From: an uncultured Mariniplasma sp.
GTDB taxonomy: Bacteria; Bacillota_I; Bacilli_A; Acholeplasmatales; Acholeplasmataceae
Direction: 5' to 3'
NCBI GenBank assembly: GCA_964587475.1
Contig: CAZPLF010000006.1
Coordinates: forward strand, 1 to 64,000
DNA length: 64,000 bases
Both the position numbers and the translations under genes were made by a program. Shown here piece after piece: positions 10,418-34,091 of this stretch (position 1 is its first letter; every line of letters begins with the position of its first letter). The notes beneath the pieces were generated by a model that did not search any database, was not told the DNA's origin, and was given only the letters and a program-made list of their open reading frames with translations.

Positions 10418-11125
10418 ATGCCAACACCGCATATTGATTTAGAAAATAAAGATTTAATAGCAAAAACAGTTTTAATGCCAGGAGATCCACTGAGAGCCAA
10501 GTATATTGCTGATAACTTCTTAACAAAAGTTGTTCAAATAAACGATGTCAGAAACATGTGGGGGTATACAGGTTATTTTGGTAAAAAGAAAGTTACCGTC
10601 ATGGGTTCTGGAATGGGTATGCCAAGTATTGGTATATACAGTTATGAACTGTTTAAGTTTTATGACGTTGAAAATATAATACGTATTGGATCATGTGGTG
10701 CTTATAGTGATGAATTAAAACTATATGATGTTGTCCTAGTTGAACAAGCATATTCTGAATCAAGTTATGCTAAGACAATGGGTGTTTCATCAAGAAAGAT
10801 TTTACCTGCAAATAAAACCCTTAATAATAAATTGATAAAAGCTGCAGAAAAAATCAATGTTAAATTACATCCTTCAGTTGTTCATTCTTCAGATGTTTTT
10901 TATCGATTGAAGAGTGACGAGTATAAAGAAATACATGAAAAATATGGCGCACAAGCCGTTGAAATGGAGTCATTTGCCTTATTTGCTAATGCTAAAGCAT
11001 TACATAAACGCGCAGCTTGTCTTCTAACCGTATCGGATTCCTTGGTGACACATGAGGCAACCTCATCACAGGAAAGACAAGAAGCATTTACAAAAATGAT
11101 GGAAGTTGCTTTAAATAGTATCTAA
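10418..11125 (+). CDS. deoD: Purine nucleoside phosphorylase, DeoD-type
   Basis: PNP family-1 motifs (MPGDPLRAKYIA, VMGSGMGMPS). 235 aa. Confidence 0.9.
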   Translation: MPTPHIDLENKDLIAKTVLMPGDPLRAKYIADNFLTKVVQINDVRNMWGYTGYFGKKKVTVMGSGMGMPSIGIYSYELFKFYDVENIIRIGSCGAYSDELKLYDVVLVEQAYSESSYAKTMGVSSRKILPANKTLNNKLIKAAEKINVKLHPSVVHSSDVFYRLKSDEYKEIHEKYGAQAVEMESFALFANAKALHKRAACLLTVSDSLVTHEATSSQERQEAFTKMMEVALNSI

Positions 11126-12324
11126 TGCTACTCATTAAAAATGATTTCAAAACGATACAATTCGCTGTCTACTTTACAGACTTAGACGAAGATGAAACAC
11201 GTGTGTATCGTTTTTTGTTGCCTAGATTATTAACATCACATACGAACCAATTACTCAATAAAACAATGATGAATGAAAAACTAGAAGATCTATATGGTGC
11301 CTACTTCAAATCACGCGTTGAACGTGTAGGCAATTTTTCTGTTGTAAGCATTATCTTAACCATTGTGGATCCTTTAATAGTTGAAGATGAACAGTTGATG
11401 AATCAAGCAATTGAACTTTTTAATCAAGTTCTTTACGATCATGATACTTTTGATAAGGATCTTTTCCTTGAAGAAAAAAGAATGGTGATTGAACAATGGG
11501 AAACGCTTCATGATAAGAAAAGATTGTATGCACAAACTAAATTTTATGAACATTTCTTCAAAGGTGATGCCTACGGAACACCTCTTTCAGGTAGTCTAGA
11601 GGACATAAAAAAATTAAACGTACAAAAACTAGAAAAATATTATAAAGAAGTATTTTTGAAAAATACAAAGAAATTCGTGGTAAATGGTAGAGTGAGTCGG
11701 GAAGATCAACTTAAACTTGAAAAAATGATGGCTCATGATTTAGAGAATAAGCATCCATTTGTAACATCATTTAGACCTGTAAGACCGCTACTTTTTATCG
11801 AAGAAGAAACTCAAATGAAGCAAGCAATTCTTAAACTGGGTTATCATTTTCCTATTTTCAGAGAAGATGAACACTACCATGCAGCTATTTTGTTAGATAC
11901 CATTTTAGGAGGTTATCCAGAAAGCAGGCTTTTTCAAGAGATTCGAGAAAAAGATGGATTGTGTTATGATATATCTTCTAACTATGATTACTATAAAGGC
12001 GTCATCATGATTAGTAGTGGTGTTGATCTTATTCAAAAAGATATGGCTTTGGAAGCAATCAAAAATTTAGTTTTAGACATGATTCTCAAAGGCGTTTCAG
12101 AAGAAGAGTTATTGCATGCAAAAGCATATTATACACATCAAATAATGAGTAGCCTTGACAATCAGTCTTTTTTAACAAAAAGAGCATTCATACGCGAGTT
12201 ACTCAATCATGATGAAACCATTGAAGAAAGACTCAATGCACTAAATAAAGTAACAATTGCTGATATTAAGATGCTTCTTAATATGATTACTTTAGATACT
12301 GTTTATGTACTTCACGGAAACTAA
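11125..12324 (+). CDS. M16-family peptidase, non-catalytic subunit (no HxxEH)
   Basis: 399 aa pitrilysin-like fold without the zinc-binding motif. Its likely partner is at 23263. Confidence 0.65.
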   Translation: MLLIKNDFKTIQFAVYFTDLDEDETRVYRFLLPRLLTSHTNQLLNKTMMNEKLEDLYGAYFKSRVERVGNFSVVSIILTIVDPLIVEDEQLMNQAIELFNQVLYDHDTFDKDLFLEEKRMVIEQWETLHDKKRLYAQTKFYEHFFKGDAYGTPLSGSLEDIKKLNVQKLEKYYKEVFLKNTKKFVVNGRVSREDQLKLEKMMAHDLENKHPFVTSFRPVRPLLFIEEETQMKQAILKLGYHFPIFREDEHYHAAILLDTILGGYPESRLFQEIREKDGLCYDISSNYDYYKGVIMISSGVDLIQKDMALEAIKNLVLDMILKGVSEEELLHAKAYYTHQIMSSLDNQSFLTKRAFIRELLNHDETIEERLNALNKVTIADIKMLLNMITLDTVYVLHGN

Positions 12325-12356: not shown

Positions 12357-12392
12357 ACTTTCATACTCTATTTGGTATGAAGGTTTTTTTAT
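12357..12392 (+). terminator. Rho-independent terminator
   Basis: CUUUCAUAC-loop-GUAUGAAGG hairpin followed by UUUUUUU. Confidence 0.7.
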
Positions 12393-12462: not shown

Positions 12463-12490
12463 TTGACAATACTGTGAAAAATGATATAAT
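12463..12490 (+). promoter_or_regulatory. Sigma-A type promoter for the BMC locus
   Basis: TTGACA at 12463-12468, a 16-nt spacer, and an extended -10 TGATATAAT at 12482-12490. Confidence 0.6.
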
Positions 12491-12554
12491 TAAGCCAAAT
12501 ATAGACGTGAATATATGAAAGAAAATTACTCAATACAACAAAGAGGTGCGATTA

Positions 12555-13580
12555 GTGATAAAAAATAAAGATATCGCGATACGATCTGGGGTTTCTGTTG
12601 CTACTGTTTCTAGAGTGATGAATCAAAGTGGTTATGTCAAAGATGAAACTAAGGATTTGGTGCTCAAAGCATTCAATGAACTGGTCAATGACGATCAGCT
12701 TTTAGTTCAATCGATAGCAAATGGAAAAACCAATCTCATAGGTGTTGTTGTTCCGGATATTTCAAATCCTTTTTTTGGTGAGGTCATCAAGGGTATATCA
12801 AGCATAGCTGATCAACACTCCGCTAGTTTGTTAGTCTGCAACACAGAAGAACAACTAGATAAGGAAATTAAGTATCTAGAACTGTTTAAGACAAATAACA
12901 TCAAAGGCTTAATTATCACTCCAAAAACAGACCAAGGTGTTTATAATTCAAAATACTTATATCAGCTTGAAGGATTAGGGGTTCCTATTGTCTTATTAGA
13001 TCGCGGTATCAATTTATCTCATTTTAATTCGGTTTTCGTCAACAATACATCAGGTTCTTTTGATGCAATCAATGCTTTGATTAATGAAGGCCACAAAAAT
13101 ATTGCAATAATTTCAGGACCGATGTCATCCAAACCAGGACGTGAAAGATTCTATGGTTATGAAAACGCCTTGAAAAACAATAATCTACCAGTGAATAAAG
13201 ATTATATCTTCTTTGGTGATTTTAAGCTACAAAGTGGTTATGAAATAACCAAAAAAATTCTGAATCTTGAACATAGACCGACTGCTATTTTTGCAGCAAA
13301 CAATATGATGGCTCAAGGATGTATAAAAGCTTTAGTTGAAAACAAATTATCAATTCCAAAAGATATGTCATTTATTAGCTTCGATGATGTTGACATGTTT
13401 GAAATTATGAATCTCAATATTTCAACAGTATCAAGACCAACTGAATTAATGGGTATTGTCGCTGCTGAAATGCTATTTGAACTAGTAGATCATAAACAAG
13501 AGAAGCATACATCCATTAAGGAAGTATTGCTAGAAACCAAACTTGTTTTAAGAGGTTCAGAAAAATTAGTTAAAAAATAA
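12555..13580 (+). CDS. LacI-family transcriptional regulator (HTH plus periplasmic-binding-fold sugar sensor)
   Basis: N-terminal HTH IAIRSGVSVATVSRVMNQ. GTG start at 12555 follows RBS AGAGG. Confidence 0.85.
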   Translation: MIKNKDIAIRSGVSVATVSRVMNQSGYVKDETKDLVLKAFNELVNDDQLLVQSIANGKTNLIGVVVPDISNPFFGEVIKGISSIADQHSASLLVCNTEEQLDKEIKYLELFKTNNIKGLIITPKTDQGVYNSKYLYQLEGLGVPIVLLDRGINLSHFNSVFVNNTSGSFDAINALINEGHKNIAIISGPMSSKPGRERFYGYENALKNNNLPVNKDYIFFGDFKLQSGYEITKKILNLEHRPTAIFAANNMMAQGCIKALVENKLSIPKDMSFISFDDVDMFEIMNLNISTVSRPTELMGIVAAEMLFELVDHKQEKHTSIKEVLLETKLVLRGSEKLVKK

Positions 13581-13592
13581 GGAGTAAACAAT

Positions 13593-14411
13593 ATGGAAAT
13601 TAACGACATCAAACAAATCGTGAGAGATGAACTCGTTACGAGCATTCTAGAATCTCAAGAATTCTTGATTGTGGGTAATTGGAAAATGAATAAAACAAAA
13701 GTTGAAGTCAATGCTTTTTTAGACGATATTGCTAATCATGATTTTGGTGATAAAAATACGGTTGTCATTCTACCTCCAAGTGCTTATCTTTATCTATTTG
13801 AAGATAAACTGAGATTTAGTAAAGTACTATACGGAACTCAAAATTTCTATCCAAAAGAAAACGGTGCATTTACAGGAGAATTTTCAGTAGACATGATGAA
13901 AGATTTTGGATGTAAGTTTGCACTTGCAGGACATTCCGAAAGAAGAGATATATTTATGGAATGTGATGCATTTACTGCTAAAAAAGTGAGAAGTTGTTTA
14001 GAAAATCAAATTAAACCAATTTTATGCATTGGTGAAAATCTAGATCAAAGACAAACAACAGATTATAAACAGTTTTTAATTGATCAACTCAAAAGATCTT
14101 TGGACCGCGTTGAAGGAAAAGATTTAAGTCAAGTCATTATTGCCTACGAACCAATTTGGGCGATCGGTACTGGAGAGACAGCAACACCAGAACAAGTTGA
14201 AGAAATACATATGCATTTAAGAAAGTTTTTAGTTCAACAATATGGATCTGAAATTGGAAAAGAAATTCCTTTATTATATGGTGGAAGTGTTAATGCCAAA
14301 AATGTTAAGGAGCTTGCACTTGCAGAAAGTGTTTCTGGATTCTTAATTGGTGGAGCAAGCTTAAACGCTCAAACATTCATTGAGATAAGCAATATCCTAA
14401 ACGGAAAATAA
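13593..14411 (+). CDS. tpiA: Triosephosphate isomerase paralog with an N-terminal extension of about 21 aa
   Basis: GNWKMN, LAGHSERR and YEPIWAIGTG motifs. There are 27 residues before GNWKMN, against about 6 in housekeeping TpiA. Confidence 0.88.
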   Translation: MEINDIKQIVRDELVTSILESQEFLIVGNWKMNKTKVEVNAFLDDIANHDFGDKNTVVILPPSAYLYLFEDKLRFSKVLYGTQNFYPKENGAFTGEFSVDMMKDFGCKFALAGHSERRDIFMECDAFTAKKVRSCLENQIKPILCIGENLDQRQTTDYKQFLIDQLKRSLDRVEGKDLSQVIIAYEPIWAIGTGETATPEQVEEIHMHLRKFLVQQYGSEIGKEIPLLYGGSVNAKNVKELALAESVSGFLIGGASLNAQTFIEISNILNGK

Positions 14412-14451: not shown

Positions 14452-15315
14452 ATGGAAATCAAAAATATCGATCGACTTGTCGACAAAGTCGCAGCAAATA
14501 TTTTAGATAAACTGGATTTAAAAACTACATATGGCAACATCAATCATAAATCCTGTTTCATTCTAATACCAAATATGGGACTGGGGATGAAAGAATATAT
14601 CGAATACATCATTGAACACTATCAAGGATACGAACTTTATTTAGCATCAAGAGAAAATGGAGCGAATGTTGGAGATTTTAAAAACATCAAAACACTTGAA
14701 TTTGATATGAAAAACCAAAAATTCATTCATCTCTTAGATTCAGTTGAAAATATCATTGTCTTAGGATTGAAAATCAATCAAATGAAATCTATCATTAAAA
14801 CTGATGACGAAGATGATGTGAATCAACTCATCCTAGAGGGACTTCTCGCAAATAAACAAGTCAACGTGATGATGAACGCAAATGAACATATCTTTAGTAA
14901 ACTAAAAAATATTGTTACTGATTTAAGACATATGGGAGTTTATGTAACTAACATCCATCAAGTGAAAGCTTCTTCAATTGTTTCAAATGTAGAAATTGAA
15001 AAGACACATCATTTAAATTCTCAACAGGAACCAGATAGATCATGGGCGATAGCAACAAAGATTGCACCTGAAAAATTATATACAGCATCTTCTAAGTTGG
15101 AAAAAGAATGTCAACTCAATCCTTTTAAAGAATCAAACGATGTACTCATACCATCAAAAAATGAATTGATTACAGAAAGTTATGTGTTAAAACTTAAAGG
15201 CAGAGGAGTTAGAACAATGATTCTTGATAAGAAACATTTAATTACGCCACTTGCAAAAGATAAATTAAGAGAATATAAAATAGATATCAAATATATAGAG
15301 GAGGCAAAATCATGA
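14452..15315 (+). CDS. Hypothetical BMC-locus protein with an amphipathic N-terminus
   Basis: 287 aa with no recognisable motif. N-terminus NIDRLVDKVAANILDKL. Sits between the TIM and aldehyde dehydrogenase genes. Confidence 0.55.
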   Translation: MEIKNIDRLVDKVAANILDKLDLKTTYGNINHKSCFILIPNMGLGMKEYIEYIIEHYQGYELYLASRENGANVGDFKNIKTLEFDMKNQKFIHLLDSVENIIVLGLKINQMKSIIKTDDEDDVNQLILEGLLANKQVNVMMNANEHIFSKLKNIVTDLRHMGVYVTNIHQVKASSIVSNVEIEKTHHLNSQQEPDRSWAIATKIAPEKLYTASSKLEKECQLNPFKESNDVLIPSKNELITESYVLKLKGRGVRTMILDKKHLITPLAKDKLREYKIDIKYIEEAKS

Positions 15316-16736
15316 GCACACAAGATCTAATTGAAAGACTTAGAGCAGAAATGGAAGAAAAATATGGAAATAAGTCAACAAATACAACAACACCTCGTGA
15401 AGCTATCAATGTAGGAAGACTTGGATGTTATGAAAATGTATTGGATGCTATTGCAGCAGCAAAAGCATCACAAGAACAATTGATGGAACTCTCCATGAAA
15501 AAGCGTAACGAAATCATTGCAGCGATGAGAAAAGCAAGTTTAGATAATGCTGAAAAACTAGCAGTGATGGCACATGAAGAAACCGGATTTGGTAGAGTTG
15601 CTGATAAAATTATCAAAAATATTTTAGCAGCAGAAAAAACACCAGGCACTGAAGATCTCAGATCTCGCGCATACACTGGTGATGATGGTATGACTTTAGT
15701 TGAAATGGCACCATTCGGAGTTATTGGCTCTATTACGCCATCTACTAACCCTAGTTCAACAATCATTAATAACAGTATTAGCATGGTTGCAGCAGGTAAT
15801 GGTGTCGTATTCAATCCTCATCCAAGTGCTAAAAAAGTGACGCTTGAGACGATTTCTATCCTCAATCAAGCCATCCATAAAGTGGGTGGACCTAAAGAAC
15901 TTTTGACTGCACCCATTGATCCAACCATGGAAACCAGCAAGGTCATCATGACGCATAAAGACATTAGAATGTTAGCTGTTACTGGTGGTGAAGCAGTTGT
16001 TGAAGTTGCTATGAGAAGCGGTAAGAAAGTCATTGCTGCTGGTCCAGGTAATCCTCCAGTGATTGTTGATGAAACAGCAAATATTAAGAAAGCTGCTAAT
16101 GATATCCTAAGAGGTTCAAGCTTTGATAACAATATCTTGTGTACTGCAGAAAAAGAAGCCTTTATTCTTAATAGCGTATTTAATGAGCTTAGAAATGAAA
16201 TGATTAGACTTGGAGCTTATGAACTAAAGCACCATGAAATAGATATCGTCACAAAAGAAGTGTTCATCAAGAATAATCAAGGTGAAACAGTAGTTAACAG
16301 AAAATATGTTGGCAAAAATGCTTCAGAGATTTTAAAAGCGTGTAAGATTCCAGTGAATCAAGATGTTAAGTTGATTCTTGCTGAAGTTGATGATTCTCAT
16401 CCATTTGTAAATATAGAAATGTTGATGCCAGTATTGGCATTAGTCAGAGTCTATTCGGTTGATGAAGCTATTGAAAAAGCAGTAGCTGCTGAAGCTGGAA
16501 GACATCACTCAGCCATGATGCATTCAGAAAGCGTTACGAACCTTACAAAAGCCGCACGCGCATTAGACACAACAATTTTTGTGAAAAATGCACCATCATT
16601 TGCTGGATTAGGTATCGAAGGAGAAGGTTTCACAACCTTAACCATTGCAACCCCAACAGGTGAAGGTTTAACCTCAGCTAGAAGTTTTACAAGAATTAGA
16701 AGATGTACTTTATCAGGCGGATTTAGAATTATTTAA
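15312..16736 (+). CDS. CoA-acylating aldehyde dehydrogenase (EutE/PduP family)
   Basis: ALDH fold with catalytic ILCTAEKE. The N-terminal peptide DLIERLRAEMEE resembles an encapsulation peptide. Confidence 0.85.
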   Translation: MSTQDLIERLRAEMEEKYGNKSTNTTTPREAINVGRLGCYENVLDAIAAAKASQEQLMELSMKKRNEIIAAMRKASLDNAEKLAVMAHEETGFGRVADKIIKNILAAEKTPGTEDLRSRAYTGDDGMTLVEMAPFGVIGSITPSTNPSSTIINNSISMVAAGNGVVFNPHPSAKKVTLETISILNQAIHKVGGPKELLTAPIDPTMETSKVIMTHKDIRMLAVTGGEAVVEVAMRSGKKVIAAGPGNPPVIVDETANIKKAANDILRGSSFDNNILCTAEKEAFILNSVFNELRNEMIRLGAYELKHHEIDIVTKEVFIKNNQGETVVNRKYVGKNASEILKACKIPVNQDVKLILAEVDDSHPFVNIEMLMPVLALVRVYSVDEAIEKAVAAEAGRHHSAMMHSESVTNLTKAARALDTTIFVKNAPSFAGLGIEGEGFTTLTIATPTGEGLTSARSFTRIRRCTLSGGFRII

Positions 16737-16757
16737 TGAAAAATAGGAGTGGATAAT

Positions 16758-18071
16758 ATGTCTATTGATTATATCCAAAGAATCAAAGAAATAGGGGTTG
16801 TCGGAGCTGGTGGTGCTGGTTTTCCAACACACGTCAAATTAAACAGTAAAGCTAAAATTGTCATTATCAATGGTGCTGAATGCGAGCCTCTGCTTAGAGT
16901 TGATCAACAATTGATGGAATTTTATCCCCAAGATGTTATAGCTGGATTAAAAATTGCAATGGCTCAAACTGGAGCATCTCAAGGTGTGATTGGCTTAAAG
17001 GGAAAGTATAAAACTGCAATCTTGAAACTCGAAGAACTGATTAAAGATGAAAGTTCAATAGAGATCAAGATTATAGGTGACTATTATCCCGCTGGCGATG
17101 AACAACAACTTGTTTATGAAGTCACCAAGAGAGTTGTTCCACTCATGGGTATTCCACTTGATGTGGGTGCTGTTGTCATTAATGTACTAACAGCAATTAA
17201 TATTGCGCGCAATAAGCCAGTTACTGAAAGAGTTGTTACAGTCACTGGAGTAGTGAAGAAACCACAAACGTTAATTGTTCCTGTGGGAACACCATTTCGT
17301 GAATTGATTGAAGCATGTGAAGGCCCTACTGACGAAAAGAACTTTAGTATCGTTGTTGGAGGACCTATGATGGGAAAAGTTGAATCCAATTGGGATACAC
17401 CCGTATCAAAAGTAACTGGTGGAATCATTGTCCTGCCAAATGATCAATATGTGATTGTTAAAAAGACAAGAAAAACCGAAACCGATCTTCAGTTAACAAA
17501 AGCGATTTGTTGCCAGTGTTCATTATGTACCGAGATGTGTCCAAGGAATATCATCGGACTCAATACAGAACCCCATAAGGTTATGAGAGGACTTGCCAAT
17601 GAAGATCCATCGACATTAGGTGCTATCGGTTCAGTCGTGTCTTGTTGTGACTGTGGATTATGCAGCATCTATGCATGTCCAATGGATTTAGATCCAGGTA
17701 AAATAACGAATTTGGTTAAGCAGAGCTTACTTAGAAAAGGTGCTAAAACCGAAAAGGTCATTCCTTATGAAGTTGATCCCTTAAGAGATAGCAAGAAGGT
17801 CCCAACAAAAAGGCTTATTGCAAGACTAGAATTATTAGATTATAATGTTGCAGCTCCCTTGAATTTCAATATATTTGAGACAAAGGCTGTAAAGGTTTTA
17901 TTAAAGCAACATATTGGTGTTGATGCAACACCAATTAAAAAGATTGGTGATACTGTTACGAAAGGTACATTAATTGCAACTTGTTATGATAAATTAGGTG
18001 CTAATGTTCATGCGAGCATCGATGGGCGCATTACAGATATTACTGATAAGTATATAGAAATACATGCATAA
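16758..18071 (+). CDS. PduS/RnfC-family flavin and 2x[4Fe-4S] oxidoreductase
   Basis: GAGGAGFPT nucleotide-binding site. Two Cys clusters: CCQCSLCTEMCP and CCDCGLCSIYACP. Confidence 0.8.
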   Translation: MSIDYIQRIKEIGVVGAGGAGFPTHVKLNSKAKIVIINGAECEPLLRVDQQLMEFYPQDVIAGLKIAMAQTGASQGVIGLKGKYKTAILKLEELIKDESSIEIKIIGDYYPAGDEQQLVYEVTKRVVPLMGIPLDVGAVVINVLTAINIARNKPVTERVVTVTGVVKKPQTLIVPVGTPFRELIEACEGPTDEKNFSIVVGGPMMGKVESNWDTPVSKVTGGIIVLPNDQYVIVKKTRKTETDLQLTKAICCQCSLCTEMCPRNIIGLNTEPHKVMRGLANEDPSTLGAIGSVVSCCDCGLCSIYACPMDLDPGKITNLVKQSLLRKGAKTEKVIPYEVDPLRDSKKVPTKRLIARLELLDYNVAAPLNFNIFETKAVKVLLKQHIGVDATPIKKIGDTVTKGTLIATCYDKLGANVHASIDGRITDITDKYIEIHA

Positions 18072-18085
18072 GGAGGAACTATGTT

Positions 18086-18631
18086 ATGGAAGCATTAGGC
18101 ATGCTCGAACTAAATAGTATTGCACGAGGTATTGAAGCTGGAGATACTGCGATTAAAACTGCTAATGTTAAATTAATTGGTGCTTATGCAGCTTGTCCTG
18201 GTAAATTTGTTGTGATGATAAGAGGTGAGGTTGCTGCTGTAAAAAGTGCCATTCAAGCTGGAGCTATCATCGCAGGTAAATCACTGATTAAAGATATCGT
18301 GATAGCAAATATACATGATCAAGTATTTTCAGCATTAAACTGTACAACAGAAATTGATCCAAAAGGTGCAGTTGGTATTATAGAAACCTATTCACTCGCA
18401 ACAGCTGTCTTAATATCTGATGCTGCCGTTAAGGCGGCAAGCGTTGAGTTATTGGAGATTAGATTAGGACGTGGACTTGGTGGAAAAGCATTTACCGTTT
18501 TGACTGGTGATGTGAGTAGCGTCAAAGCCGCAGTTGAAGCAGCTGTTATTGCCAGTAAAAATGATGGACTTTTAGCCCATACAGCAGTAATTCCAAGAAT
18601 TAGCAAGGAAATGTTACAAACATTGATTTAA
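18086..18631 (+). CDS. Tandem-domain BMC shell protein (BMC-T, PduT-like)
   Basis: Two BMC domains in 181 aa. Cys in AACPGKF sits at the position of the PduT pore 4Fe-4S ligand. Confidence 0.85.
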
Positions 18632-18656: not shown

Positions 18657-18932
18657 ATGGTAGTTGAAGCATTAGGATTAATCGAAACAAGAGGATTTGT
18701 AGGAGCTATTGAAGCTGCAGATGCAATGGTTAAAGCAGCAAATGTTAAACTTGTTGGAAAAGAAAAATCAGGTAGTGGATTAGTCGCAATTATGGTTCGT
18801 GGTGATGTTGGTGCCGTCAAAGCAGCAACTGAAGCTGGTGCTGAAGCAGCACGTAGAGTTGGAGAATTAGTATCAGTTCATGTGATCCCTAGACCACATG
18901 CAGATGTAGAAGACTTGCTTAGTAAGCTTTAA
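18657..18932 (+). CDS. BMC-H hexameric shell protein (PduA/EutM-like) 1
   Basis: [11 protein letters not shown]...[12 protein letters not shown] canonical BMC domain. Confidence 0.95.
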
Positions 18933-18963
18933 AAAAATAGATTAGAATAGGAGAATTAAAATT

Positions 18964-19236
18964 ATGAAAGAAGCATTAGGATTAATTGAAACAAGAGGAT
19001 TTGTTGCAGCAATTGAAGCTGCAGATGCAATGGTCAAAGCAGCAAATGTTAAACTAATTGGCAGAGAAAAATCAGGTAGTGGATTAGTTGCTATGATGGT
19101 TCGTGGAGATGTCGGTGCCGTCAAGGCAGCAACAGAAGCTGGCGCTGAAGCAGCGCGTAGAGTTGGAGAATTAGTATCAGTTCATGTGATCCCAAGACCA
19201 CATGCAGATGTTGAAGAATTACTCAACAATCTATAA
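18964..19236 (+). CDS. BMC-H hexameric shell protein 2
   Basis: Near-identical paralog of the previous gene. Confidence 0.95.
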
Positions 19237-19251
19237 AAAAGGAGAAAGAAA

Positions 19252-19560
19252 ATGAAAGAAGCATTAGGATTAATCGAAACTAGAGGTTTTGTCGCAGCAA
19301 TTGAAGCAGCAGACGCAATGGTTAAGGCTGCAAATGTAAGACTTATCGGAAAAGAAAAGTCAGGTAGTGGATTAGTAGCTATGATGGTTCGTGGTGATGT
19401 CGGTGCCGTCAAGGCAGCAACTGAAGCTGGCGCTGAAGCAGCTCGCAGAGTTGGCGAATTAGTATCAGTACATGTTATTCCAAGTCCACATGCAGATGTA
19501 GAAGAATTATTAAGTGCGCTTAAAGAATCACCTGCAAAAGTCGTCAAAGTAGCAAAATAA
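19252..19560 (+). CDS. BMC-H hexameric shell protein 3
   Basis: Paralog with a short C-terminal tail [13 protein letters not shown]. Confidence 0.95.
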
Positions 19561-19610
19561 TTTTTTGACAATAATTTGTGAATAAATCTATACAGAAAGG
19601 AGAAAACAAA

Positions 19611-19880
19611 ATGGTAGAAGCATTAGGTTTGATCGAAACTAGAGGATTTGTTAGTGCCGTCGAAGCTGCAGACGCAATGGTCAAAGCTGCAAATGTAAGA
19701 CTCATTGGAAAAGAAAAATCAGGCAGTGGGTTAGTCGCAGTTATGGTTCGTGGTGATGTAGGTGCCGTCAAGGCAGCTACTCAAGCTGGAGCTGAAGCAG
19801 CTCGCCGTGTCGGTGAGCTTGTTTCCGTACATGTTATTCCAAGACCACATGCAGATGTTGAAGAATTATTAAAGAAATAA
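19611..19880 (+). CDS. BMC-H hexameric shell protein 4
   Basis: Paralog. RBS AGGAG is 9 nt upstream of ATG 19611. The ORF-track start at 19578 is too long. Confidence 0.93.
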
Positions 19881-19889
19881 AAAGATAAA

Positions 19890-20675
19890 GTGAAAAGAGC
19901 TGAAATTATGGAATTAGATAAATTAATAGAAAGAATTGCTAATGAAATCTATAGCAAAATCGCAAAAGAAGACAATGGTTCATCAAGCATTAAAGTAAAT
20001 GACAATAGTGATCTTGCTAAAATGATTGATCATACATTGTTGAAACCAGAAGCAACAGAAGAAGATATTAAGAAGGTTTGTGAAGAAGCATTACAATATA
20101 AGTTTAAATCTGTTTGTGTAAACACACACTATGTTGCTTTAGTTTCACGTCTTTTGGCTGGATCTAGTGTTTTAACTTGTGGTGTTGTAGGATTCCCATT
20201 AGGTGCGATGACTACAAGAGCTAAAGTAGATGAAACTAGTGATGCGATTAAGAGTGGTGCACATGAAATCGATATGGTTATCAATATTGGTGCACTTAAA
20301 TCTGGCAATTGGAATATTGTCAAAAGTGATATTGAAGGTGTTGTCAATGTAGCAAGAGGTCGGGCGATAGTTAAAGTTATTTTGGAAACATCATTATTAA
20401 CTGATGAAGAAAAAATAAGAGCTTGTACAATTGCTAAAATGGCTGGTGCTGATTTTGTCAAAACCTCAACTGGATTTAATAAAGGTGGAGCAACAATCGA
20501 AGATATTACATTAATGCGTAAAGTTGTAGGACCACATATGGGTGTTAAAGCTTCTGGTGGTGTTCGTGATACTGAAACTGCGAGAGCAATGATTGCTGCT
20601 GGTGCAACAAGAATTGGAACAAGTTCAGGAATAAATATCATTAAGGGCTCTAAGCCTGCGACTGGTACTTATTAA
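19890..20675 (+). CDS. deoC: Deoxyribose-phosphate aldolase with an N-terminal extension of about 38 aa (SPU-type signature enzyme)
   Basis: Aligns along the full length with class-I DERA ([28 protein letters not shown]). Carries an extra N-terminal segment [19 protein letters not shown] plus a linker. The start may instead be ATG 19908. Confidence 0.9.
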
Positions 20676-20697: not shown

Positions 20698-21018
20698 ATG
20701 TATGCTGCGAGAATTATTGGAACTGTTGTGTGTACGCAAAAGGATCCAAGTATGAACAGTTTAAAGATGCAGGTTGTACAACCTGTTAACATCATTACCT
20801 TTAAAGATGAGGGTAAACCTGCAGTAGCAATTGATGCTGTTGGAGCTGGTGATTCAGAAATTGTTTTAGTTGTAGCTGGTAGTTCTGCAAGACTCACTGA
20901 ACTTACACAAAATAAACCTACTGATGCAACGATTATGGCAATTGTTGATTATGTCGATATTGAAGGTAAAAATGTCTTCAGTAAAAATAAAAAACAACCA
21001 GAAGTAGGTTCAAAATAA
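20698..21018 (+). CDS. BMC-P pentameric vertex protein (EutN/PduN/CcmL) 1
   Basis: 106 aa EutN fold. Opens with RIIGTVV. Confidence 0.85.
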   Translation: MYAARIIGTVVCTQKDPSMNSLKMQVVQPVNIITFKDEGKPAVAIDAVGAGDSEIVLVVAGSSARLTELTQNKPTDATIMAIVDYVDIEGKNVFSKNKKQPEVGSK

Positions 21019-21091: not shown

Positions 21092-21553
21092 ATGAAAATT
21101 GCTATTGGTTGTGACCATGGTGGTTATGAATTAAAGGAAAAAGCAAAAAAATATATTACAGAAGAATTAAAAATGCAAGTACAAGATTTTGGCACCTATA
21201 ATAAAAATAGATGTGATTATCCAGACTATGCATTTTTGGTTGCTTCTGCAGTTTCACTTAAAAAATGTGATTTCGGCATCATGATTGATGGCGCTGGTAT
21301 TGGTTCTTCCATGATGGCAAACAAAGTACCTGGCGTACTTGCTGCATGTGCAAATGAAGTCTATACAGCACATAATAGTCGCGAACATAACGGAGCTAAC
21401 GTTTTAACATTGGGTAGCTATGTTATAGGTGAAGGTGTCGCAAAAGAAATCATTAAAACATTCCTAAGTACCAAATTTGAAGGTGAAAGAAATTTACAAC
21501 GTGTAAAGAGTATTTTAGAAATCGAAAAAAGAATTTTAAGCAATAGGGAGTGA
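21092..21553 (+). CDS. rpiB: Ribose-5-phosphate isomerase B / LacAB-family sugar-phosphate isomerase
   Basis: MKIAIGCDHGGYELKE N-terminus. 153 aa. Confidence 0.88.
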   Translation: MKIAIGCDHGGYELKEKAKKYITEELKMQVQDFGTYNKNRCDYPDYAFLVASAVSLKKCDFGIMIDGAGIGSSMMANKVPGVLAACANEVYTAHNSREHNGANVLTLGSYVIGEGVAKEIIKTFLSTKFEGERNLQRVKSILEIEKRILSNRE

Positions 21554-21557
21554 TACT

Positions 21558-21830
21558 ATGCAAATGGCAAAAGTGATCGGTACTGTGACATCAACAGTCA
21601 AGATCAAAGATATTAAAGGTGTATCTTTACTAGTGATTCAACCTGTTAATTCAAAGTATGAATCACTAGGTGCACCTATTGTTGCCGGAGATAATTACGG
21701 TGCAGGTGTTGGTGAATATGTTTTCTATTCGAAAAGTAAAGAAGGAGCAATGAATTTACCGATTCCTACTTCATGTGTTGATGCTGGGATAGTTGGTATC
21801 ATTGATTATGTCTTTAGAAAAGATGAATAA
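21558..21830 (+). CDS. BMC-P vertex protein 2
   Basis: 90 aa EutN fold. Confidence 0.82.
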   Translation: MQMAKVIGTVTSTVKIKDIKGVSLLVIQPVNSKYESLGAPIVAGDNYGAGVGEYVFYSKSKEGAMNLPIPTSCVDAGIVGIIDYVFRKDE

Positions 21831-21851
21831 CATTAAGAATGAGGTGTTATT

Positions 21852-22148
21852 ATGCAACTAGCAATAGTCGTAGGGAATTTGGTTTCAACACATAAAAATG
21901 AATTAATCAAAGGAAAAAAACTTTTGTTTGTCCAACCTATTGATGAAAAATTGATCCCATTTGGTGATGAAATGCTTGCTGTTGATGCTGTAGGAGCAGG
22001 CATAGGTGATGTCGTTGTCATTCTGCATGAAGGTACGTCAGCAAGACAGGTTACCCATGCAGAAAGCAAATACTCACCAATCGAATTGTGTATTGCAGGC
22101 ATTGTCGATTCGATTAAAACTGAAGGTAGCTATAAAACTTTTGATTAG
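21852..22148 (+). CDS. BMC-P vertex protein 3
   Basis: 98 aa EutN fold. Confidence 0.82.
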   Translation: MQLAIVVGNLVSTHKNELIKGKKLLFVQPIDEKLIPFGDEMLAVDAVGAGIGDVVVILHEGTSARQVTHAESKYSPIELCIAGIVDSIKTEGSYKTFD

Positions 22149-22160
22149 TAGGATGATAAA

Positions 22161-23162
22161 ATGAACCTTTTAGATCATATAATTGAACAAGCAAAAAAGA
22201 ATATTAAAACGATTGTTCTTCCCGAAGGGAAGGATCAAAGAACCATTACCGCTGCAAGAAAACTTCAAAGTCAGAATATTGTAAATGTGATTGTTTTAAT
22301 TAATCGTGCTGATATGAATGATGAGACCACAAAGTTGCAAAGTGAAGGTATCAAAGTCATTGTTTTGGAACAATCTGAACAATTGAATTTGTACAGTTCA
22401 CAATTATACGAATTAAGAAAAGAAAAAGGAATGACAAAAGAAGAAGCTGATAAGCTTGTTCTCAATACTGTTTATCATGGCGTGATGATGGTTAAGAACC
22501 AAGATGCTGATGGTATGGTTGCTGGTGCAATTACTGCATCAGGTGATGTCTTAAGACCAGCACTTCAAATTCTTAAAACGGCAGAAAACGTAAAGATTGT
22601 GTCGTCGTTTTTCTTAATGGAAATTCCAAATTCCAAACATGTAATGAATAAAGTGTTTGCTTTTTCGGATTGTGGTCTAGTGGTTAATCCAAACGCAGAT
22701 GAATTAGCGGAAATTGCAATTCAAACTGCAAAATCATTTGCATATCTAACACATGAAGATCCTCGAGTAGCTATGCTTTCCTATTCAACTTATGGAAGTG
22801 CAAAAGGAGAGCTTGTTGATAAGGTTGTTACTGCAACAAAAAATGTACAATCGAAATATCCTAATCTTAAAATTGATGGCGAATTACAACTAGATGCTGC
22901 AATTGTACCTTCTGTTGCTCAATTAAAAGCACCATTAAGTAGAGTTGCAGGATATGCTAATGTATTGATATTTCCCGATTTGCAATCTGGAAATATAGGA
23001 TATAAATTAGTAGAGAGATTGGCTAATGCAGCAGCTTATGGACCAATCACTCAAGGATTGAGCAAACCTGTCAATGATCTTTCAAGAGGATGTTCAGCAG
23101 AAGATATTGTTGCTGTTGTGGCAATTACTGCTCTTCAAACACAATCAGGTATAGTTCATTAA
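22161..23162 (+). CDS. pta: Phosphate acetyltransferase (Pta/EutD type)
   Basis: 333 aa PTA_PTB fold. Motifs IVLPEGKDQR, AFSDCG, DLSRGCSAED. Confidence 0.88.
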   Translation: MNLLDHIIEQAKKNIKTIVLPEGKDQRTITAARKLQSQNIVNVIVLINRADMNDETTKLQSEGIKVIVLEQSEQLNLYSSQLYELRKEKGMTKEEADKLVLNTVYHGVMMVKNQDADGMVAGAITASGDVLRPALQILKTAENVKIVSSFFLMEIPNSKHVMNKVFAFSDCGLVVNPNADELAEIAIQTAKSFAYLTHEDPRVAMLSYSTYGSAKGELVDKVVTATKNVQSKYPNLKIDGELQLDAAIVPSVAQLKAPLSRVAGYANVLIFPDLQSGNIGYKLVERLANAAAYGPITQGLSKPVNDLSRGCSAEDIVAVVAITALQTQSGIVH

Positions 23163-23262: not shown

Positions 23263-24537
23263 ATGATAAAAAAAACATTTGAACGCTTTAATGAATCACT
23301 TTATATAATCAAACTGAGAAATGGTATGCAAGTTCATATATTGCCTAAAGAAGATCCTTATTTCACGACATATGTTGAAGCAAGTGTTCCTTTTGGAGCT
23401 CTAGATTTATCATATAAAACTGATGATAAATTAATCAATACACCATATGGAACAGCACACTTCTTAGAACATAAAATATTTGCAATGCCTGATGGAGATG
23501 CATTTGCGCATTTTTCTGCTTTGGGTGTTGATGCAAATGCTATGACCTCATATGATCAAACGTCTTATTTATTTATTGCTACTCAAAATATGATTTCTGC
23601 TTTAGAGTATCTATTTGAAATGATTGACACGCCTTTTTTTACAAATGAAAATGTCGATCAAGAGAAACGCATTATCGCAGAAGAACTAAAGATGTATCTA
23701 GATGATCCGAATGTTGTCATGCATAACCAACTAATAGAGATGATGTATCATGCTCACCCTCTAAAGTATGATATTGGAGGAACGCTTGAATCAATTATGG
23801 ATATTACTCCAGAAATTCTTAAAGATGTCTATGATAAATTTTATAATCCCTCAAATCGGTTAATTACAATTGCTGGTAAAGTAGATATTAAAGAACTACA
23901 AATATTCTTTAAAAACTATGATTTAAAAAATCCAGTAAAATATAAAAAAGTAAAGACTATTTATCCGAAAGAACCTATGCGATTATACCAAAAATCAATG
24001 ATAGAAATCAAAGATGTTGGAATTGATAAGCTGATGCTTGGTATTAAACTTAGTCCAAGTAAGTCAAATCAAAGAGATCAAGTGAAAAAAGAAATGGCAG
24101 TTTCAATGCTTTTGAATATTCTTTTAGGCCCATCTTCTCAAACTTATGCAAAATTACTTGAAGATAAGTTGATCAATCAAAGTTTTTATGTCAACACAAC
24201 ATTTGAAAAAAAAGCAGAAAATATTATTGTATTTGCTGAAACGAAAAGAATTTATAAACTGAAGAAAATCTTAATCGATATTCTAACTGTTCAAGCTTTG
24301 AGTTTGGTAACTCAAGAAGCTTTTGATCGGTATAAGAAAGTTTATTTAGGCCAATTCATATTTGCTCTAAACAATCTAGAAACAAAAGCGTATCTTTATG
24401 GTAAATATTTCCATATGGGATCTTCTTTGTTTGATGTTGTCGATTTACTTAAAGAAATAGAATATGAAGACGTACTTCAAGAACTTAAATCAATACAAAG
24501 AAAATATATTGCTGTACTAATACATAAAAAGGCTTAA
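23263..24537 (+). CDS. M16-family zinc peptidase, catalytic subunit
   Basis: HFLEH inverted zincin motif. 424 aa. Confidence 0.75.
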   Translation: MIKKTFERFNESLYIIKLRNGMQVHILPKEDPYFTTYVEASVPFGALDLSYKTDDKLINTPYGTAHFLEHKIFAMPDGDAFAHFSALGVDANAMTSYDQTSYLFIATQNMISALEYLFEMIDTPFFTNENVDQEKRIIAEELKMYLDDPNVVMHNQLIEMMYHAHPLKYDIGGTLESIMDITPEILKDVYDKFYNPSNRLITIAGKVDIKELQIFFKNYDLKNPVKYKKVKTIYPKEPMRLYQKSMIEIKDVGIDKLMLGIKLSPSKSNQRDQVKKEMAVSMLLNILLGPSSQTYAKLLEDKLINQSFYVNTTFEKKAENIIVFAETKRIYKLKKILIDILTVQALSLVTQEAFDRYKKVYLGQFIFALNNLETKAYLYGKYFHMGSSLFDVVDLLKEIEYEDVLQELKSIQRKYIAVLIHKKA

Positions 24538-32795: not shown

Positions 32796-34091
32796 ATGCA
32801 TATTGTAGACTTAATCACCAAAAAGAGAGATGGCAAAGCTTTAAGTAAAAACGAAATAGAATTTATCATCAAAGGATATACAAATGGTAAAATTCCTGAT
32901 TATCAAATCAGTGCTTTATTAATGGCTATTTATTTTCAAAATATGAATGATGAGGAATCAACATATCTAGCATTAGCGATGAGAGATTCAGGTGATTCCA
33001 TTGATTTATCAGAAATTCCAGGAATCAAAGTTGACAAACATTCAACAGGTGGTGTTGGTGACAAGGTGACACTTGTTTTAGGACCACTATTAGCATGTTT
33101 AGGCGTGAAATTCGCTAAAATGAGCGGCAGAGGTCTTGGCCATACTGGCGGTACCATTGATAAACTTGAAAGCATACCAGGATTTAAGGTTGTTTTGCCA
33201 GTTGAAGTATTCATTCAACAGGTTAAAGATATAGGTATTGCTATTGTAGGACAAAGTGGAGATGTTGCACCTTCTGATAAGAAGCTTTACGCACTAAGAG
33301 ATGTTACGGCAACCGTAGATACAATTCCACTCATTGCTTCAAGTATTATGTCAAAGAAACTTGCAAGTGGTGCTGATGCCATTGTTTTAGATGTTAAAGT
33401 TGGGCATGGTGCCTTCATGAAAACAGAGGAAGAAGCAGTTAAATTAGCAAAACTTATGGTTAGCATCGGAAAACTTGCAGGCAAAAAAGTAACAGCGATT
33501 CTAACAGGAATGGATGAACCTCTAGGACATAAGATTGGTAATGCTCTAGAAGTTTATGAAGCCATTGAAACTTTGAATGGCCAAGGTCCTAAAGATCTAG
33601 TTGCTGTTACAGTTGAAATTGGTGCACATCTTCTACTAGATGCTCAGATTGAAACAGATTTTGAGATCGCTAAGATTAGATTACAAGAGGCACTTCAAAA
33701 TGGAACTGCTTATCAGAAGTTTCTTGAACTTGTAGAAGCTCAAGGAGGAGACGTTAATAGCCTTCTTGAACCAAGTTTGCTATTGTCTAAGGATACTGTA
33801 GAGGTTTTATCTGAAAAAGAAGGATTTATTATGGATATTAACGCTATGGATATCGGTAAGGCTGCAATGAGATTGGGTGCTGGAAGAGAAACCAAAGAAG
33901 ATGAAGTCTATCTTGACGTTGGCCTTGATTTGCATAAAAAGATAGGCTCATACGTTAAAAAAGGTGAATCTATTGCTACGCTATATGTTAGAGAAAAAGG
34001 TGTTAAAGAGGCTAAACAACTCATTCTAGATGCGATAACTATAGGCAAAGAACACAAGAAAATTGTTTTGATAAAACAAACCATTAAATAA
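32796..34091 (+). CDS. pdp: Pyrimidine-nucleoside (thymidine) phosphorylase
   Basis: Glycosyl-transferase family 3 motif KHSTGGVGDK. 431 aa. Confidence 0.9.
   Translation: MHIVDLITKKRDGKALSKNEIEFIIKGYTNGKIPDYQISALLMAIYFQNMNDEESTYLALAMRDSGDSIDLSEIPGIKVDKHSTGGVGDKVTLVLGPLLACLGVKFAKMSGRGLGHTGGTIDKLESIPGFKVVLPVEVFIQQVKDIGIAIVGQSGDVAPSDKKLYALRDVTATVDTIPLIASSIMSKKLASGADAIVLDVKVGHGAFMKTEEEAVKLAKLMVSIGKLAGKKVTAILTGMDEPLGHKIGNALEVYEAIETLNGQGPKDLVAVTVEIGAHLLLDAQIETDFEIAKIRLQEALQNGTAYQKFLELVEAQGGDVNSLLEPSLLLSKDTVEVLSEKEGFIMDINAMDIGKAAMRLGAGRETKEDEVYLDVGLDLHKKIGSYVKKGESIATLYVREKGVKEAKQLILDAITIGKEHKKIVLIKQTIK

Follow-up and report, generated by a model that had tools for sequence, protein, structure and literature searches.

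The closest described systems to the locus studied here are microcompartments in which a flavo-FeS protein, renamed MNdh (formerly PduS), is paired with the shell protein BMC-T^SE, and for which NAD+ recycling by electron passage through the shell has been proposed (Sutter et al., PNAS 2024; PMC11626177). The same study reported 361 microcompartment (BMC) loci that carry the MNdh/BMC-T^SE pair but no alcohol dehydrogenase (ADH) gene, listed the sugar-phosphate utilisation (SPU) compartments among the types carrying MNdh, and supported the model in vitro for the Clostridium botulinum pair by EPR, voltammetry, and NADH-oxidation assays (PMC11626177). The electron-export model has also been applied to SPU compartments by Dwyer et al. 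2024 (PMC11585597). The mechanism matters because it turns the shell into a redox-separating barrier and removes a wasteful alcohol branch. The case for electron export, including the ADH-less loci and the presence of SPU among the MNdh types, is already in print, and the genes flagged in the 64 kb stretch of DNA analysed here (the window) are a clear example of this published system rather than a new mechanism. What the locus adds is one clean, clade-wide conserved ADH-free example from free-living wall-less DNA degraders of marine sediments.

Gene content and compartment type

As shown in Table 1, the conserved operon is opened by the gene for a LacI-family regulator and ends with a phosphotransacetylase (Pta) gene, while the terminator-like hairpin marks its upstream boundary. 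A sigma-70-type promoter candidate, recognized from its consensus match alone, lies just 5' of the LacI-family gene. The gene order LacI-TIM-PduM-like-AldDH-MNdh-BMC-T-BMC-H (2-5 copies)-DERA-P-RpiB-P-P-Pta is kept in ~25 Izemoplasmatales genomes. Both here and in all the related loci, the genes for the aldehyde dehydrogenase (AldDH), MNdh, and BMC-T directly follow one another, and those for MNdh and BMC-T adjoin in every locus holding both.

Table 1. Positions of the operon features and of selected motifs in the window
Feature	Position	Strand	Remarks
Terminator-like hairpin and T-run	12357..12384	+	3' of upstream yfmF-family gene
Sigma-70-type promoter candidate	12463..12490	+	12/12 consensus (TTGACA, 16 nt spacer, TATAAT); extended -10 TG
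LacI-family regulator	12546..13580	+	closest to PurR/RbsR/CytR; conserved in related loci; gene-caller start 12555
Triosephosphate isomerase (TIM)	13593..14411	+	N-terminal extension of ~22 aa, encapsulation-peptide type (MEINDIKQIVRDELVTSILES)
PduM-like microcompartment protein	14452..15315	+	orthologues with PF15953; weak TIGR02536 match
CoA-acylating AldDH	15312..16736	+	PF00171; NCBIfam PRK15398 at 636 bits
AldDH N-terminal encapsulation-type helix	15324..15359	+	residues 5-16
MNdh (PduS homologue)	16749..18071	+	predicted FMN/NADH-binding, 2x[4Fe-4S], RnfC_N C-terminal (domain profiles, motifs); likelier start ATG at 16758, AGGAG 8 nt upstream
MNdh Gly-rich site	16803..16823	+	GAGGAGF at residue 19
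MNdh Fe-S motifs	17508..17543, 17643..17681	+	
BMC-T^SE (PduT-like tandem BMC-domain shell protein)	18086..18631	+	two PF00936 stretches
BMC-T AACPGK	18188..18205	+	Cys37 codon 18194-18196, in CPGK motif
Four tandem near-identical BMC-H hexamer genes	18657..19880	+	18657-18932, 18964-19236, 19252-19560, 19578/19611-19880
Deoxyribose-phosphate aldolase (DERA/DeoC)	19890..20675	+	TIGR00126, 288 bits; probable start 19908
BMC-P pentamer (vertex) protein 1	20698..21018	+	
RpiB-type sugar-phosphate isomerase	21092..21553	+	without clear encapsulation extension
BMC-P pentamer proteins 2 and 3	21558..22148	+	21558-21830, 21852-22148
Phosphotransacetylase, Pta/EutD type	22161..23162	+	PF01515

Four proteins, AldDH, DERA, TIM, and the PduM-like protein, have a conserved encapsulation-type extension. 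In AldDH the extension is the helix DLIERLRAEMEE, which is kept across orthologues and leads into a low-complexity linker that varies in length; DERA likewise bears an N-terminal encapsulation-type helix, and the PduM-like protein combines an encapsulation-peptide-like N-terminus with a conserved C-terminal LITPLAKDKLRE motif. Unlike these four proteins, MNdh has no such extension, as would fit a protein that docks directly onto the shell protein. Pta also has no recognisable encapsulation extension, so the luminal cofactor economy is only partly understood.

DERA is the signature enzyme of SPU compartments and, being a class I (Schiff-base) aldolase, works without a cofactor. The operon combines this PF01791 DERA-type aldolase and a PF02502 RpiB with shell genes, an AldDH, and a BMC-P triplet, and the locus shows all the features by which MNdh, BMC-T^SE, and SPU are defined at the sequence level. 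Judged by these features, the compartment is of the SPU type, predicted to degrade deoxyribose phosphate in a wall-less marine bacterium. Every gene of the operon could be assigned, and none encodes a B12-dependent enzyme, an adenosyltransferase, or a cobalamin function. Historically, PduS was annotated as a cobalamin reductase that supports a B12-dependent enzyme (PMC11626177, PMC4207490). In that role the protein would thus have no client here; such a role is contradicted by the gene content and we consider it very improbable for this locus.

The MNdh and BMC-T^SE proteins

A Pfam scan placed four domains in MNdh, namely Complex1_51K (residues 12-153), SLBB (162-209), Fer4_17 (254-315), and RnfC_N (379-435), and this PF01512-PF10531-PF13534-PF13375 order matches the one that defines MNdh. 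Relative to RnfC the protein is circularly permuted, with residues 382-431 aligning to RnfC 34-83 and residues 7-312 to RnfC 122-416 (7zc6, total E 1e-56). The FMN/NADH-site motifs GGAGFPTHVKL (likewise GAGGAGFPTHVKL) and AECEP align with RnfC, as do both Fe-S motifs, CCQCSLCTEMCP and CCDCGLCSIYACP. Their eight cysteines (Cys254/257/260/264 and Cys299/302/305/310) are invariant in 30/30 orthologues, and no ferredoxin-type motif was present in the window outside MNdh. Thus, the four-domain order with C-terminal PF13375, the FMN/NADH motifs, and the eight cluster cysteines that define MNdh all occur here, and so does its defining context, a gene next to one for a BMC-T^S that bears a Cys, at a locus with an acylating AldDH. 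It was once speculated for SPU loci that the PduS homologue itself turns acetaldehyde into ethanol and so replaces ADH (Axen et al. 2014; PMC4207490). However, no aldehyde site can be recognised in the protein, which aligns over its full length with the NADH:FMN/Fe-S electron-transfer module RnfC, and an ethanol-forming role would not explain why it is so strictly paired with a shell protein that bears a Cys, which makes such a role hardly credible.

The BMC-T protein is a tandem PF00936 protein of the single-layer, non-permuted type, and it aligned over its full length and without gaps to 3nwg and to the PduT structures 3pac and 3n79, its identity to PduT structures being 41-46% (43.5% to 3pac and 41.2% to 3n79 over 177 residues). 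Its Cys37 falls on the Cys of C. freundii PduT ('TICPGKF' in 3pac) and on the Ser at chain position 38 in the S. enterica PduT structure 3n79 ('TISPGKF'), which we take to be the C38S mutant of PduT. The CP(G/S)K motif that defines BMC-T^SE, with its Cys where PduT has residue 38, is therefore present, and CPGK is unchanged across all Izemoplasmatales BMC-T orthologues. The pore Cys is invariant in 30/30 orthologues, in seven of which it is the sole Cys; together with the equally invariant Fe-S cysteines of MNdh, this puts the motif match beyond chance. The original prediction had described an acylating AldDH with an encapsulation-like N-terminal peptide, directly followed by a PduS-like flavo-FeS protein with a Gly-rich site and two 4Fe-4S Cys motifs and then by a tandem BMC-T with a Cys at the PduT cluster-ligand position. 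All three descriptions were borne out, the last by the alignment with PduT that had been set in advance as a check on the Cys position.

Alcohol dehydrogenase and NAD+ recycling

The classical metabolosome core consists of AldDH, PTAC, and AlcDH, and its ADH component is missing at this locus. Pfam was run on every ORF of at least about 230 aa, the size of an ADH, and among these ORFs of the window there were zero matches to the Fe-ADH, Zn-ADH, and SDR families. Antisense ORFs aside, those of at least 150 aa that the scan left out measured just 157-165 aa and are too short for an ADH. As a positive control, the same scan detected a PF00465 Fe-ADH in L024 and in L025, two distant MNdh loci, as well as Zn-ADH-family ORFs in a third distant locus (L027). 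ADH genes were also absent from the orthologous operon itself and from about 10 kb around it in ~25 related Izemoplasmatales genomes. The claim that the locus lacks an ADH therefore stands for the window and for the flanks of the orthologous loci, and with it all the sequence premises of the electron-conduit reading hold; as a functional assignment by homology, that reading is reasonable and supported.

We put a probability of roughly 70% on the flagged genes being the redox core of an SPU-type microcompartment of an Izemoplasmatales bacterium (Mycoplasmatota), from which the electrons of NADH are exported through MNdh/BMC-T^SE without an ADH. [quoted passage not shown] Encapsulated acylating AldDH would use CoA and NAD+ to turn acetaldehyde into acetyl-CoA, with formation of NADH, and Pta would convert acetyl-CoA to acetyl-phosphate. 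MNdh, docked to the BMC-T^SE trimer on its luminal face, would then oxidise NADH at its FMN and regenerate NAD+ without an ADH, while the electrons would pass from its two 4Fe-4S clusters to a pore 4Fe-4S cluster held by three Cys37 residues and on to a cytosolic acceptor. At the locus itself this reading builds on the gene identities, the domain order, the cofactor-ligand motifs, the pore Cys alignment, the conserved MNdh/BMC-T^SE adjacency, and the fact that the locus has no ADH, whereas the cofactors bound, the oxidation of NADH, the sequence of electron transfers, and the placement of MNdh on the lumen side are predicted by analogy from the literature on homologues.

The direction of electron flow or the side of the shell on which MNdh sits could also be the opposite, so that reducing equivalents enter the lumen or a cytosolic partner is serviced. 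MNdh here is without an encapsulation peptide, and half of the published AlphaFold solutions dock it against the concave face of the shell protein, which is the outer one (PMC11626177). However, the sole luminal redox reaction predicted from the operon yields NADH, which calls for an oxidant and not a reductant. MNdh homologues have moreover been detected by proteomics in purified compartments, as cited in the same study, in which the luminal face of BMC-T^SE is also the more conserved one (PMC11626177). We regard such an arrangement as quite improbable.

A stronger competitor to electron export as the main route is that NAD+ is mostly recycled otherwise, by an encapsulated or cytosolic ADH whose gene lies elsewhere in the genome or by slow NAD(H) exchange through the pores, with MNdh/BMC-T^SE being auxiliary or conditional. 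In most loci with MNdh (1,725) an ADH gene is present as well, and the growth of Salmonella pduS and pduT knockouts is only mildly affected, which indicates that the module can be auxiliary (PMC11626177). The three distant loci of the positive control are further instances, and the ADH search here covers 64 kb of the genome, such that an AdhE or an encapsulated Fe-ADH could lie elsewhere. Against this, neither the window nor the 10 kb flanks of the ~25 orthologous loci have an ADH, whereas MNdh/BMC-T^SE is present in each of these loci that spans its position. In addition, among the Izemoplasma MAGs examined in a preprint, an aldehyde-alcohol dehydrogenase is found in HR1 and ZiA1 but compartment genes only in HR2. 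On balance we consider another main route unlikely, and we infer that this organism would recycle NAD+ mainly or solely through MNdh/BMC-T^SE. The wider proposal, that throughout the Izemoplasmatales the pair is the sole NAD+ route of the deoxyribose-phosphate compartment and delivers electrons to a cytosolic fermentative sink, is possible though doubtful. The sink might be a ferredoxin or flavodoxin feeding FeFe hydrogenase or Rnf, either of which has been reported for cultured relatives. If the pair were the sole route, all acetaldehyde would end up as acetyl-phosphate (and ATP) instead of half of it becoming ethanol, and the clade, ADH-free and genetically simple, would serve as a natural test case for the external acceptor of BMC-T^SE. 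The clade could suit a search for this acceptor since a few relatives are cultured.

Comparison with described systems

The locus agrees with described SPU loci (Axen 2014; Sutter 2021; Dwyer 2024) in its DERA, AldDH, and TIM with encapsulation peptides, its RpiB and PduS homologue, and its BMC-T^s and BMC-P triplet without a BMC-T^dp. The locus of Ca. Izimaplasma HR2 (L019), in which a compartment was noted earlier, has an identical gene order at 73-90% identity. A PduL-type PF06130 phosphotransacylase, which is reported for SPU1, SPU4, and SPU7 and is not universal, was not found in the operon; unlike in those types, the phosphotransacylase here is the PF01515 Pta lacking an encapsulation peptide.

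RnfC of the Rnf ferredoxin:NAD+ oxidoreductase (7zc6, 9eri, 8ahx) provides the solved structures closest to MNdh (E 1e-56 to 1e-41) and shares with it the NADH/FMN site and two 4Fe-4S clusters, which are predicted here. However, the RnfC_N barrel-sandwich domain is N-terminal in RnfC and C-terminal in this MNdh, the second Fe-S motif (CxxCxxCxxxxCP) has a spacing one residue longer than that of RnfC, and the partner of MNdh is a shell protein, whereas those of RnfC are membrane Rnf subunits. The PduS/PduT pair of Salmonella and Citrobacter is likewise similar, both in PduS architecture and in a BMC-T that is 41-44% identical over 177 residues with the cluster-ligating Cys position, yet this locus lacks both the ADH PduQ and the B12-dependent diol dehydratase that PDU loci encode. 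As in the MNdh/BMC-T^SE pair of C. botulinum GRM1, MNdh has four domains in permuted order, FMN/NADH motifs, and two Fe-S motifs, although the compartment here is SPU rather than GRM1 and the host belongs to the Mycoplasmatota. Also shared are the adjoining BMC-T with CPGK and the co-occurrence with an acylating AldDH, and like the 361 loci cited above the locus has no ADH.

Gene content of the operon and its microcompartment type

The segment at 15312-18631 contains three consecutive plus-strand genes, which encode a CoA-acylating aldehyde dehydrogenase (AldDH), a flavoprotein homologous to PduS (MNdh), and a PduT-like shell trimer protein (BMC-T). Both peptides quoted in the original prediction are exact translations of the DNA, namely DLIERLRAEMEE of AldDH (15324-15359) and AACPGK of the BMC-T (18188-18205). 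The mechanically assigned GTG/TTG starts of the MNdh, deoxyribose-phosphate aldolase (DERA), fourth BMC-H, and LacI ORFs are probably too far upstream. Gene calls on identical public contigs favor the shorter starts for all four; they begin MNdh at the ATG at 16758 (437 aa), and AGGAG lies 8 nt ahead of this codon.

Features of the operon, listed in gene order, and of its surroundings (paired starts are mechanical/shorter)
Feature	Position	Strand	Details
DeoD-type purine nucleoside phosphorylase	10418-11125		near operon
YfmF-family M16 peptidase-like gene	11125-12324		
Terminator-like hairpin	12357-12384		ahead of operon
Promoter candidate	12463-12490		follows hairpin, ahead of operon; perfect consensus
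LacI-family regulator	start 12546/12555	+	341 aa from shorter start; first operon gene
Triosephosphate isomerase (TIM)	between LacI and PduM-like genes	+	
PduM-like protein	14452-15315	+	287 aa; PF15953 tag on orthologues
CoA-acylating AldDH	15312-16736	+	474 aa; PF00171; NCBIfam PRK15398, 636 bits vs cutoff 403
Flavoprotein MNdh	16749/16758-18071	+	Complex1_51K 12-153, SLBB 162-209, 4Fe-4S dicluster 254-315, RnfC_N 379-435
Tandem BMC-T	18086-18631	+	181 aa; two BMC (PF00936) domains
BMC-H x4, tandem	18657-19880	+	BMC-H4 start 19578/19611, 89 aa from shorter start
DERA	start 19890/19908	+	255 aa from shorter start; TIGR00126, 288 bits
BMC-P 1	after aldolase	+	
RpiB	after BMC-P 1	+	
BMC-P 2 and BMC-P 3	between RpiB and Pta	+	
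Phosphotransacetylase (Pta), Pta/EutD type	22161-23162	+	PF01515; last in order
YfmH-family M16 peptidase-like gene	23263-24537		
Pyrimidine-nucleoside phosphorylase	32796-34091		near operon
Alkaline-phosphatase-superfamily protein	34102-35220		PF01663; no NCBIfam match

The gene content is that of a sugar-phosphate utilization (SPU) microcompartment as described by Axen et al. 2014 (PMC4207490), Sutter 2021, and Dwyer et al. 2024 (PMC11585597), and the sequence-level defining features of MNdh, its shell partner BMC-T^SE, and SPU are all present at the locus. A minor departure from SPU1/4/7, which are reported to carry PduL (PF06130), is the Pta/EutD-type phosphotransacylase. BMC-T^dp is absent from the locus. 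The four BMC-H paralogues differ chiefly at their termini, the third having a ~12-aa C-terminal tail.

AldDH, the aldolase, TIM, and the PduM-like protein each carry a conserved amphipathic N-terminal extension of the encapsulation-peptide type, joined to the rest of the protein by a linker that varies. The encapsulation-type N-terminus originally proposed for AldDH is thus retained in its orthologues, and N-terminal encapsulation peptides have also been predicted on SPU AldDH and SPU4 TPI (Dwyer et al. 2024, PMC11585597). Inspection of the termini revealed no such extension on MNdh, RpiB, or Pta, the last having a standard N-terminus. The RpiB C-terminal tail was rejected as an encapsulation peptide because it falls within the normal RpiB length (residues 1-146 match model positions 2-147 of 149). 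Since a sequence search of solved structures with the 287-aa ORF gave no match, its PduM-like identity is taken from the PF15953 (PduM) tags of its Izemoplasmatales orthologues (228-232 aa); the gene in the window itself has no Pfam match, and the copy in Ca. Izimaplasma HR2 is named 'Nucleotide utilization protein'. The N-terminus of the protein resembles an encapsulation peptide and its C-terminal LITPLAKDKLRE motif is invariant; the window copy is ~55 aa longer than most orthologues.

The flavoprotein and the pore cysteine of its shell partner

The nearest solved relatives of MNdh are RnfC subunits, with 7zc6 (E 1.2e-56) ranking first and 9eri and 8ahx next. The alignment falls into two pieces in swapped order, with query residues 7-312 matching RnfC 122-416 and residues 382-431 matching RnfC 34-83, which places the barrel-sandwich domain at the C-terminus of MNdh, whereas it is N-terminal in RnfC. 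Alignment to RnfC includes both Cys motifs and two segments of the NADH/FMN site, GGAGFPTHVKL and AECEP, and all eight cluster cysteines are invariant across 30 orthologues. Together with the domain set, these features uphold the PduS/RnfC-type identity originally assigned to the flavoprotein. A role for MNdh as an aldehyde reductase is not supported, given that the protein is homologous over its full length to an electron-transfer module. Likewise, a cobalamin reductase would need a client enzyme, and the operon contains none.

A sequence search of solved structures aligned the BMC-T with PduT structures over its full length and without gaps. Identity was 43.5% to 3pac (C. freundii PduT; E 2.6e-43, 177 residues), 41.2% to 3n79 (S. 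enterica PduT), and 46.2% to 3nwg, which is labeled only 'Microcompartments protein' and which we take to be a Desulfitobacterium PduT-like protein. Cys37 of the BMC-T faces the Cys of TICPGKF in 3pac and the Ser of TISPGKF (chain position 38) in 3n79, presumably a crystal structure of the C38S mutant. The alignment was run as a refuting check, and because Cys37 occupies the cluster-ligand position of PduT, it leaves the original placement of this residue standing. The pore cysteine was also found in 30/30 orthologues from related loci and is the sole cysteine of the protein in seven of these, which shows that the position is under selection.

Four more distant loci from Bacillota and Synergistaceae (L022, L024, L025, and L027) have CCGK or CAGK as the pore motif of the BMC-T next to MNdh. 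The Cys is kept, but the motif departs from CP(G/S)K, the form that all MNdh partners have been described as sharing (PMC11626177). These four loci also have CN or CG in place of CP at the end of the second MNdh Fe-S motif.

Alcohol dehydrogenase search and the proposed route of NAD+ recycling

To assess the proposed absence of an alcohol dehydrogenase (ADH), all ORFs of ADH size (≥ ~230 aa) in the 64 kb window were scanned against Pfam, which identified no Fe-ADH, Zn-ADH, or short-chain dehydrogenase family member; the scan left out three non-antisense ORFs of 157-165 aa, which are too short for an ADH. Thus, the claim holds for the locus. Similarly, no ADH is present in the operon of ~25 related loci having the same gene order. 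The ADH-size ORFs in the 10 kb flanks of related loci encode a tRNA-guanine transglycosylase (assigned from its N-terminal sequence alone), a ketopantoate reductase, an acyltransferase, and a GH18 lipoprotein, among others. The GH18 lipoprotein is an 870-aa ORF beside the operon in locus L003, for which AdhE was considered and rejected. As positive controls, PF00465 Fe-ADH genes adjoin the same module in two Oscillospiraceae loci (L024 and L025) and Zn-ADH-family genes are found in a Synergistaceae locus (L027), these distant loci being 47-52% identical.

The original prediction interpreted the MNdh/BMC-T pair as a means of exporting electrons for NAD+ recycling, an interpretation supported by what the genes encode, by the ligand motifs, and by the conserved MNdh/BMC-T pairing, as well as by a published model. 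DERA would cleave deoxyribose-5-phosphate to acetaldehyde and glyceraldehyde-3-phosphate, and AldDH would convert the acetaldehyde to acetyl-CoA, generating NADH in the lumen. Oxidation of this NADH by MNdh would send electrons via the two MNdh clusters to another 4Fe-4S cluster, which the three Cys37 residues of the BMC-T trimer would bind at the pore, and a cytosolic acceptor would then take the electrons up outside the shell. The cofactor content, NADH-dependent cluster reduction, and potential ladder of such a pathway may be carried over to this locus by analogy with experiments on C. botulinum homologues (PMC11626177). Reverse electron flow, or an MNdh located outside the shell, fits poorly because the only predicted luminal redox step produces NADH. 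The most serious rival is that NAD+ is recycled by a different route, for example through cofactor leakage or an ADH gene located elsewhere, and that the module has a conditional role like the one in Salmonella. Electron export through MNdh/BMC-T^SE may be the sole NAD+-recycling route here, and the electron acceptor outside the shell is presumed to be cytosolic. Ferredoxin-type Cys motifs were sought in all six frames of the window; the only ones were the two within MNdh, which yielded no external acceptor candidate.

Distribution of the locus and comparison with known systems

A search with the flavoprotein, using one genome per species, identified 34 loci. The closest (70-78% identity) all belong to the Izemoplasmatales/Mycoplasmatota, including Ca. 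Izimaplasma HR2 and two complete genomes, which places the window in this wall-less, free-living clade. The operon order of the window is kept in about 25 loci, which have between two and five BMC-H copies and in which the flavoprotein gene invariably adjoins the BMC-T gene. In the window, the operon (11 kb) sits between YfmF- and YfmH-family genes, which we take to be a normally adjacent pair in B. subtilis. Neither neighbor is found at any of 33 related loci, and the flanks differ among those loci, which suggests that the operon has relocated as a module within the clade. Of the nucleoside phosphorylase genes near the operon, that for pyrimidine nucleosides lies beside a PF01663 gene, whose product might stand in for phosphopentomutase. 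A 349-aa membrane protein with ferric-reductase-like transmembrane and FMN-binding domains is encoded in HR2 (locus L019, 17799-18848), ~1.5 kb downstream of the operon, and the window lacks a counterpart. The Wasmund preprint credits the proposal of a compartment in HR2, to which locus L019 corresponds, to 2016, in a passage missing from the published version.

Both the system type and its reading are already in the literature. Axen et al. 2014 (PMC4207490) noted that the ADH alone is missing from SPU loci and suggested that PduS might compensate. Dwyer et al. 2024 (PMC11585597) reported that every SPU subtype but SPU6 has a PduS homologue and cited MNdh as an alternative means of NAD+ recycling. 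Sutter et al. (PNAS 2024, PMC11626177) introduced the names MNdh for the PduS homologue and BMC-T^SE for its partner, found the two adjacent in 97% of 2,172 loci, counted 361 loci with the pair but without an ADH, listed SPU among the B12-independent types carrying MNdh, and proposed that NAD+ is regenerated by exporting electrons across the shell. The mechanism outlined above is identical to this model. The present locus is an ordinary, well-conserved member of a known system; what it still offers is a clean, naturally ADH-free example from a clade in which some representatives have been cultured.
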